DNA from: a phage
Assembly (NCBI GenBank): GCA_030980935.1
Contig: GCA_030980935.1_3059.1
DNA length: 64,000 nt
Reading direction: 5' to 3' (one strand)
A program made the position numbers and the translations under genes. Numbering within the stretch: position 1 is the first letter of the stretch; each line of letters starts with the position of its first letter. Positions 26,988 to 28,618 of this stretch are shown piece by piece. The notes beneath the pieces were generated by a model, which saw only the letters and a program-made list of their open reading frames with translations, was not told where the DNA came from and searched no databases.

Positions 26988-27767
26988 TTAATTAAAAATA
27001 TATACTTCATCAGTTCCATTCTTTTCTTTGGAATGATATATGTTAAAGACGTATTTTTTATTAAGATGCTTAACATTATATTTTTTAGACCATTCTTTAA
27101 GAAGAGTGTTTTCCTTTCCGTGATGCTCTAAAACATTCGACAGTCCAAATTTTATTCCTCTGTCATTTAAAGAATCTAAAAGATTTAAAAGGTCTTTTTC
27201 TTCTTCTTCTGACCAAAATTTATTATAATCAGCAACTGTTATAAGATATGGAGGGTCCACATATACAAAATCGCCATCTAGAATTTTGACATCTTTAAAA
27301 TGCAATGAACTAAAGATTATTTTATCACAATTTTGTTTAAAGTGATTAAAGCGTTTTTCACTATTTTTGTTTATAGTTCTTTTTCCAAACGGAGTAGTAA
27401 AATTTCCTTTATCGTTTATACGAATCATATTACTAAATCCGTGAAAATGAAGAACATAAAGTAAAAGAGGATCTCTAGTTTTATTATAATCTTCACGTAA
27501 TTTCAAAAACTCTTCTTTTGATGTTTTTGATAGTTTGTATTGCTTTATTACTTTTAAAACGTCATCCCATGATACATTAATAAGACGCTTATACATTTCA
27601 ATAATTGGGGTTTGAATATCATTAGCCAATACAGGGCCATTGACGTTCAAAGACACTGATAAACCTCCACAAAATAAATCCACGAATCTGTCATATTTTG
27701 GAAAGTGAGGCTTAAGTTCAGGTAATAATGATTGTTTATTACCTGTATACGCGATAGCTCCTAGCAT
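26988..27767 (-). CDS. dam: DNA adenine methyltransferase Dam (GATC, N6-A)
   Basis: 259 aa; FCGG AdoMet motif and DPPY catalytic motif. Confidence 0.9.
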
Positions 27768-28327
27768 TATATTCTCTCATTTATTGCAGCAAAAAATGAA
27801 TTATACAATTCATCATCATATGTATTTGATAATAATACTAACACGTTTTGTGATTTAGCATATTCATTAAACCTTGCTTGGATGGTTGGATTATCAGTAA
27901 ATGATTCTCTTTTTGTCCATTTATTACGTGGATAATATCCGCATGGCAAAAAATCTAATATCATCAATGACACAGGGTTTTCAGTTTTTGTGTATTCTTT
28001 TAATTTCTCTTTATCTTCTAAATATATTCCAACCGAATCAATAGCTGTACCTCCACCAACTTGGTGTTTAATTTCAATTATATGCTTTTTACCGTTGCGA
28101 GAAATAACAATATCAAATCTTCTAGTACGCTTCTTAGTTATAAAATTAGAGCAAAACAAATTATTTGATTTTTCAGTATCATCAATTAAAACCATTTTTT
28201 CTTGATAACTAACTGAACAATCAGTGAAATATTCTTTTACTTTATTAAGTATGAAATTTTCAACTACGGCAGATATTTTATATGAATCTCCGTTTAAAGC
28301 CATTTCATGCACAATTTTATTAATCAT
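27767..28327 (-). CDS. Hypothetical protein with PD-(D/E)xK-like motif, coupled to dam (186 aa)
   Basis: Stop overlaps dam start (TAATG); motif [19 protein letters not shown]; GAGGATGA RBS; own early promoter upstream. Confidence 0.5.
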
Positions 28328-28349
28328 TATATCATCCTCAGCAATTTAT

Positions 28350-28385
28350 TTTATAATACCATAACAAGCTGAGAAAGTAAACAAA
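28350..28385 (-). promoter_or_regulatory. T4 early promoter upstream of the dam-coupled ORF
   Basis: GTTTAC (28377-28382) and TGGTATTATAA -10 region; GAGGATGA RBS follows. Confidence 0.5.
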
Positions 28386-28417
28386 TTTATGATAAATATT
28401 AATTTAAAGGAGGACAT

Positions 28418-28618
28418 ATGGTACAAAAATTAATGGCACTTGTTAATGCCATAAAAGGTAATAAAAAACGTATAGCTTTTACTATTTCTGCTATGGTAGG
28501 AATTTTACTCTGGAACTTTATTCTATCACCTATTGCAATTGCACATGGTATTAATATTCCAGTGGTTACTCTTGATACATTTGTAGATTTAGCATTTGCT
28601 TTAGTTGGGTTGATTTAA
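28418..28618 (+). CDS. Small membrane protein (66 aa), plus strand
   Basis: AAAGGAGGA RBS 4-12 nt upstream of ATG; two hydrophobic segments; convergent with gene 61 stop. Confidence 0.4.
   Translation: MVQKLMALVNAIKGNKKRIAFTISAMVGILLWNFILSPIAIAHGINIPVVTLDTFVDLAFALVGLI

Follow-up and report, generated by a model that had tools for sequence, protein, structure and literature searches.

Organization of the dam locus

The 64,000-nucleotide stretch of phage DNA analyzed here (contig GCA_030980935.1_3059.1 of GenBank assembly GCA_030980935.1; hereafter the window) carries, directly upstream of the gene for the DNA adenine methyltransferase Dam, an open reading frame (ORF) for a protein of 186 amino acids, here called ORF186. 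The region is 98 to 99% identical to the corresponding DNA of T2-type Tequatroviruses, including Serratia phage PhiZZ30, vB_EcoM_112, and T2. On the minus strand the genes run from the gene 61 primase (28615..29643) through ORF186 and dam to gene 56 (26409..26942), with a plus-strand ORF of 66 codons (28418..28618) lying between gene 61 and ORF186. A preliminary description of this DNA had drawn attention to ORF186 as a possible nuclease gene ending one base into the dam start, and direct reading confirmed the overlap: the TAA stop of ORF186, which has an ATG start, and the ATG of dam have their final and first A in common (...ATA TAA TG...). The features on which the argument depends are as follows.

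26948..28406, minus strand: accessory cassette of 1.46 kb, comprising dam, ORF186, and their promoter, delimited by blastn breakpoints against RB14 and T6
27767..28327, minus strand: ORF186, protein resembling restriction endonucleases of the PD-(D/E)xK kind (phrog_8706, to which databases assign no function)
26988..27767, minus strand: dam, D12-class N6-adenine DNA methyltransferase of 259 amino acids (Pfam PF02086, E 7.9e-51)
28353..28381, minus strand: TTTACT-17-(TG)TATTAT, a promoter-like element of the sigma-70/T4-early type for ORF186 and dam, from a consensus scan
28335..28339, minus strand: Shine-Dalgarno sequence GAGGA, read from the sequence, 7 nt 5' of the ORF186 ATG
28259..28261, minus strand: codon for E23, in the predicted helix 15-33, invariant in alignments
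28067..28114, minus strand: predicted catalytic codons for D72 (28112..28114), E85 (28073..28075), and K87 (28067..28069), invariant in alignments
27791..27796, minus strand: A6/T6 run near the 3' end of ORF186, one base shorter in phage T2 according to the alignment and the translation of the T2 ORF
27855..28390, no strand: interval of 536 bp deleted in T4-type genomes, from blastn against T4

A ratio of nonsynonymous to synonymous substitution rates of 0.08 to 0.20, similar to that of dam, marks ORF186 as a genuine gene maintained by purifying selection. Its AT-richness, noticed by eye in the preliminary description, was borne out by windowed composition: the G+C content of ORF186 is 27.3% compared with 34.4% for the window, placing it in the lowest 0.9% among 561-bp windows, and the cassette as a whole, also at 27.3%, is the minimum of all 1,459-bp windows (sampled at 20-bp steps). 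Where an early promoter had been anticipated, near 28350-28385, there is a promoter-like element, TTTACT-17-TATTAT with an upstream TG (28381..28353), and the annotation of Yersinia phage fPS-65 places a “predicted early promoter” at the equivalent spot. Because promoter-like matches in this AT-rich region are no commoner than in shuffled sequences (10 found versus 12.7 expected), we treat the promoter as a consensus-level call.

ORF186 is predicted to be a PD-(D/E)xK endonuclease

Databases label the product of ORF186 hypothetical, and no Pfam family matches it above threshold. The family is tiny: a search of 5.8 billion clustered proteins gave 10 matches, an exhaustive profile search covering 1.84 billion representative proteins gave 12, and IMG/VR contributed 2 loci. 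None of 185,579 bacterial and archaeal species genomes yielded a relative; the family was found only in T4-like phages. Full-text literature searches returned no published description of ORF186, which, as far as we found, seems not to have been described.

In a nine-member alignment reaching down to 29% identity, residues E23, D72, E85, K87, H88, and Q89 are invariant, as is the motif GTAIDS (93-98). The acidic-then-ExK arrangement picked out in the preliminary description is present, and its D and E-x-K residues are the same in all nine sequences. An AlphaFold2 model (pLDDT 79, pTM 0.78) places E23 on a helix (15-33), D72 on one strand (66-77), and E85 and K87 on the next (80-88), within the alpha-beta-beta-beta-alpha-beta core that characterizes the PD-(D/E)xK superfamily, such that the conserved E...D...ExK set lies on helix 1 and strands 2 and 3. 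Nearly all Foldseek matches in the PDB are PD-(D/E)xK nucleases, with Can2/Card1, Bax1, and XisH-type proteins among the matches, and an independent BFVD model of the homologue from phage MX01 superposes on the ORF186 model at a TM of 0.90. The model consists of one compact domain, most of which can be aligned with a Type IIP enzyme. On the strength of the fold models and the invariant residues, a nuclease fold with an intact active site can be taken as established at the computational level, and in our reading ORF186 would encode an active, compact PD-(D/E)xK endonuclease of the small Type IIP kind (MunI/EcoRI structural class).

Sequence comparisons gave weak but recurrent matches to Type II restriction enzymes, those to DpnII falling in its catalytic region. 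The PADLOC profile REase_II matched ORF186 at an E of 1.3e-4, and the Pfam DpnII profile (PF04556) matched four of the nine family members (best E 8.3e-5); BanI and HSDR_N were also matched. For a profile-profile comparison with hhalign, 16 DpnII-family proteins were aligned; the query used to collect them agreed at 99% identity with a PF04556 protein and at 100% with one bearing the name DpnII. ORF186 aligned with template residues 124-226 at a probability of 27.6% (pairwise E 6.5e-4), with E23, D72, and E85 falling on the invariant DpnII residues E152, D201, and E214, and ORF186 “RRFDIVI...IIEI...GGG” paired with DpnII “KRFDFVI...LIEV...GSG.” This similarity is suggestive because DpnII is a GATC enzyme partnered with a Dam-class methylase, and the partner of ORF186, like that in the DpnII/MboI systems, belongs to the Dam/DpnM (D12) class; it may hint at kinship, at a level below any threshold for membership. 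The two differ in that DpnII has ExN and a later lysine, whereas ORF186 has ExK and its family is found only in phages. The full-length architecture of DpnII (about 280 amino acids) is not that of the 186-residue phage protein, which matches profile positions 153-235 of 278.

A likeness to EcoRI seen by eye (EAKHQ, GNAIER) proved not significant (hhalign probability 0.2%). A search of PDB sequences with the family profile returned nothing at E ≤ 10, and an NCBIfam search returned noise only. ORF186 thus differs from the MunI/EcoRI class that its model resembles (PDB 1D02 and 1CKQ) in having no significant sequence similarity to it and a different motif spacing.

ORF186 homologues and methylase genes travel together

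The Dam encoded in the window is 97 to 100% identical to the T2 and T4 enzymes (tblastn), and an ORF186 homologue lies directly 5' of a D12 methylase gene in all nine divergent lineages with context. The junction between nuclease stop and methylase start takes the form TAATG four times, and otherwise TAAATG, ATGA, or overlaps of 7, 20, and 35 nt. The genomic surroundings of the pair are of at least three kinds. Tequatrovirus and several metagenomic relatives have it between the small plus-strand ORF and gene 56, and one locus (L016) has it between the gene 61 primase and a small ORF resembling the 66-codon ORF. In Klebsiella phage KPV15 (Jiaodavirus) it is found in the vicinity of rIIB and a topoisomerase gene, and identity to the window proteins is 43% for the nuclease and 62% for Dam. 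Pairwise identities of nuclease and methylase correlate (Pearson r = 0.80, the pairs not being independent), and the two co-diverge to 30-40% and 50-57% identity, respectively. An endonuclease gene adjoining a methylase gene, the arrangement of Type II restriction-modification (R-M) systems, is thus found in nine of nine lineages and in 148 phage records. Adjacency in so many lineages, the variety of contexts, and the failure to see a nuclease gene lacking Dam support the earlier proposal that the two genes form a unit.

The slot upstream of dam holds other genes in some phages. In Aeromonas phage asfd_1h (Biquartavirus; L027 1337-1807), a denV-like gene (T4 endonuclease V; phrog_1183, E 1.3e-38) fills the primase-dam slot, with a 7-nt overlap into the start of dam, and a different DNA enzyme thus stands in the position of ORF186. 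RB49ORF064c, considered as a hidden ORF186 homologue, was ruled out (hhalign probability 0.1%). One metagenomic relative (L015 4010-4291) has an extra inserted ORF of 93 amino acids, with a weak MazG-like match (E 0.0017), which separates the small plus-strand ORF from the ORF186 homologue.

Allelic states of the cassette among Tequatroviruses

Alignment of the interval with the T4, T2, T6, and RB genomes, a comparison that the preliminary description had called for, revealed several states of the locus. Homology to RB14 and T6 breaks at 26947 and 28407, where about 41 bp replaces the cassette. T4 has dam and is without ORF186 as a result of the 536-bp deletion of 27855..28390, which takes ORF186 codons 1-158 together with the promoter and leaves the last 87 nt of the gene in place. 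A short microhomology of the TGAT type is common to the two deletion end points (…TTTTG|TGAT… and …TTTA|TGAT…), which is consistent with loss in T4 by illegitimate recombination.

A 600-bp query centered on the ORF186/dam junction found 181 phage records in a sampled listing; 148 had both halves, and the other 33 were T4-type with the same end point (query coverage 1-387); no record with ORF186 only was seen among the matches listed for this query. About 535 records match the wider region, but a Dam with 90% identity or more is present in only 182, from which it follows that some 330 Tequatroviruses, T6 and RB14 being examples, are without both genes at this locus.

Smaller lesions also affect ORF186. 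KarlGJung (L022 1501-1686) retains a C-terminal stub of 61 amino acids beside an intact dam and has the same frameshift in the A6 run as T2, and in vB_EcoM_G4500 (L023 1201-1760) a frameshift splits ORF186 into ORFs of 46 and 142 amino acids, again with dam intact. Together with the T4 deletion, these make three independent inactivations of ORF186 that leave dam intact. The laboratory strain of T2 (L002 3382-3927) has one base fewer in the A6 run, and the resulting protein of 181 amino acids ends in ...NSFLLQ*; the one-base loss abolishes the ORF186/dam overlap. The ORF186 allele of the classic T2 strain may therefore be impaired, which would matter for any experiment.

The asymmetry is plain in these records: the methylase gene persists alone in at least 33 of them, and an endonuclease gene without the methylase was not seen among the matches listed. 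A methylase tolerated by itself and a nuclease never seen by itself are the pattern expected of an R-M pair. The cassette as a whole, dam and ORF186 together, is optional between conserved genes and polymorphic among relatives, as the loci of homing endonucleases are.

GATC content of T4-like genomes

Occurrences of GATC were compared with a second-order Markov expectation in the window (1-64000), T6 (1-50000; L024), RB69 (70001-120000; L028), and KPV15 (80001-130000; L029). The window contains 70 copies where 206 are expected, making GATC the rarest of the 256 tetranucleotides relative to expectation, and the 1.46-kb cassette holds a single copy, at 27470. Observed-to-expected ratios were 0.34 for the window, 0.33 for T6, 0.30 for RB69, and 0.16 for KPV15, and GATC was the most depleted tetramer in each.

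Neighboring genes

Two further features lie between gene 61 and the cassette.

28418..28618, plus strand: small membrane-protein gene, 66 amino acids (phrog_2024; RB32ORF030w/RB69ORF029w), outside the cassette
28433..28452, minus strand: terminator-like hairpin and T-run 3' of gene 61, from a scan; the fPS-65 annotation has a predicted terminator in this same position

The hairpin is positioned such that it would separate gene 61 transcription from the cassette. The plus-strand ORF, described earlier as convergent on gene 61 with a strong ribosome-binding site, has AAGGAGG upstream, encodes a hydrophobic product, and has a stop codon that overlaps the gene 61 stop within a TTTAAA palindrome; the statement that it is the only plus-strand ORF of its block applies to the area looked at, 25.5-31 kb. 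It adjoins gene 61 in T4, T6, and RB14 (as RB32ORF030w, “similar to RB69ORF029w”), cassette or no cassette, and is intact in T4 (L001 3239-3439), where the RefSeq record leaves it unannotated. Relatives of the protein at 22-37% identity keep the pattern WN..P.A..G..P.VT invariant, and five of the eight differences between T4 and the window are synonymous. By these signs the ORF is a real, conserved gene for a small membrane protein. Its presence with or without dam and ORF186 makes it a neighbor and not a component of the module, contrary to the suggestion in the preliminary description. An ATAAATA sequence upstream of it matches seven of the eight positions of TATAAATA, the consensus of the T4 late-promoter box.

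On the other side of gene 61, two adjacent minus-strand ORFs, 29812-30168 (118 amino acids) and 30170-30760 (196 amino acids), occupy the place of T4 gene 61.2. They end in near-identical C-terminal peptides, SIDDQIFNAFMNRG and SIDDQIFNAFMNKG, which suggests a tandem duplication or a modular tail.

A candidate restriction-modification cassette

We propose that ORF186 and dam constitute a Type II-like R-M pair, probably centered on GATC, and put the chance that this reading is right at about even; nuclease activity, specificity, protection by methylation, and the biological target are the parts of it that we infer. ORF186, the overlapping dam, and their own early promoter would make up a self-contained R-M-type cassette in T2-type and some other T4-like phages. 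A single early transcript would yield both proteins; Dam would methylate the GATC sites of phage DNA and thereby exempt it from cleavage, and ORF186, probably a homodimer like MunI, would cut DNA lacking the mark at or around GATC. Because the hosts of the carrier phages are Dam-positive enterobacteria, the likely targets would be super- or co-infecting phages without dam, or other unmethylated foreign DNA, and not the host chromosome. T4 would be a derivative that has shed the nuclease and kept an “orphan” Dam: the window Dam is 97% identical to that of T4, but its gene is preceded by that of a nuclease partner and by an early promoter of its own, and T4 has lost the two by deletion. There is precedent for viruses that bear a nuclease together with a protecting methylase. 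The chlorella virus pair R.CviAI/M.CviAI (GATC) and EcoP1I of prophage P1 are used against other DNA in the infected cell. Those systems are biochemically proven, whereas ORF186 is predicted, belongs to an undescribed nuclease family, and resides in a virulent phage with hydroxymethylcytosine DNA.

Several points weigh against this interpretation. The GATC specificity of ORF186 is a guess that leans on the DpnII likeness, and ORF186 stays short of the DpnII family (15.7 bits, the Pfam cut-off being 23, and the hhalign probability of 27.6%) and is without the N-terminal 150 or so residues of DpnII. No relative was found in the 185,579 species genomes, and the pair is therefore not a recognizable bacterial R-M system. 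GATC depletion does not track the cassette, being equally strong in T6, which is without it at this locus, and in RB69, which is without it in the sampled stretch; the depletion is thus lineage-wide, cannot be credited to ORF186, and is no evidence for GATC specificity. The glucosyl-hydroxymethylcytosine of T-even DNA by itself blocks most restriction enzymes, which makes the protective need for Dam uncertain; it may already protect the phage, and rival T-even phages might be protected just as well. Since the known hosts are Dam-positive, their DNA would be no target. Constant adjacency to dam is also what would be expected of a homing endonuclease targeting dam. Finally, unrelated genes 5' of dam overlap it in the same manner in other T4-like phages (RB49ORF064c in RB49, a gene in Klebsiella phage RCIP0052, and the denV-like gene in Aeromonas phage asfd_1h), so the one-base overlap of ORF186 with dam is weaker evidence than it appears.

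The main rival to an R-M pair is a free-standing PD-(D/E)xK homing endonuclease that cuts genomes without ORF186, in or near dam or the 56-61 interval, with dam co-converted during double-strand-break repair. It would account for the constant adjacency to dam and for the hot-spot location, and ORF186 resembles the T4 homing endonucleases (SegF beside gene 56, and the Seg and Mob enzymes generally) in being an optional nuclease gene among conserved early genes, in the same region and polymorphic among T-even phages. The Seg and Mob enzymes, however, are GIY-YIG or HNH proteins with DNA-binding domains, whereas Pfam found no GIY-YIG or HNH domain in ORF186, whose model is a single compact, Type IIP-like PD-(D/E)xK domain without an extra DNA-binding module and whose gene travels with a methylase. 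Nor do the alleles look like the traces of homing: nuclease and methylase co-diverge with no sporadic transfer, the Tequatrovirus dam-only alleles seen all retain ORF186 remnants and offer no clean empty sites, and the commonest polymorphism is the presence or absence of the entire cassette, dam included. We regard the homing explanation as unlikely. A general or structure-specific nuclease serving host DNA breakdown, repair, or recombination, beside dam for historical reasons of tight gene packing, strikes us as improbable, even though the PD-(D/E)xK fold is multifunctional (Can2/Card1, Bax1, and XisH-type proteins are among the matches), overlaps between neighbors are the norm in T4-like genomes, and the gene is dispensable, being absent from T4, T6, and RB14. 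Adjacency that outlasts relocation and persists in homologues as distant as 29% identity would be difficult to account for if the two genes were not functionally coupled, and no genome with ORF186 only was seen among the matches listed.

Two further possibilities keep the link to Dam and change its sense. ORF186 could be a methylation-dependent nuclease (Type IIM/IV-like) acting on Dam-methylated cytosine DNA, with the phage Dam topping up host marks and glucosyl-hydroxymethylcytosine shielding the phage. This would suit Dam-positive hosts, yet on such hosts the phage methylase would be needless and ORF186 without dam is never seen; the 186-residue model has no recognizable methyl-reading domain (winged helix, SRA, or similar), and its best matches are ordinary Type IIP enzymes. 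We hold it to be improbable as well. It would be more surprising still if ORF186 were a catalytically inactive PD-(D/E)xK-fold accessory or regulator of Dam, for which linkage to Dam is the sole, indirect argument: all four canonical catalytic residues are invariant in the family, and Dam is established to work alone in T4, which is without ORF186. An anti-defense role, also raised in the preliminary description, is one to which nothing in the analysis points specifically.

Biochemists have relied on T4 Dam as a workhorse for decades, and dam mutants of T4 are reported, in the work of Hattman and Schlagman, to show essentially no phenotype. A conserved nuclease partner and an early promoter dedicated to the pair accompany Dam in T2 and about 150 sequenced relatives, whereas in T4 both are deleted. 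Should the two genes form an R-M system, Dam would gain a rationale, and the loss of ORF186 may explain why T4 Dam looks jobless. Pairings of nuclease and methylase are of a known kind; the nuclease family, its confinement to T4-like phages, and the implication that T4 Dam is an orphaned partner are, as far as we found, undescribed. The pair would then exemplify a virulent phage with hypermodified DNA that carries its own restriction system, probably for phage-phage competition, and ORF186 would represent a new family of small Type II-like endonucleases that could be unusually tolerant of modified cytosine. At its boldest, and we think it quite unlikely in this form, the R-M reading would make T-even Dam the surviving half of a phage-borne weapon: ORF186 would cut GATC wherever it is unmethylated, glucosyl-hydroxymethylcytosine DNA included; co- or super-infecting relatives without dam (the T6 and RB14 types) would be restricted by T2-type phages; and T4-type phages would keep Dam as immunity. 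Were that so, an intra-viral arms race would explain both the three allelic states of the locus and the long-unexplained role of Dam in the T-even phages.

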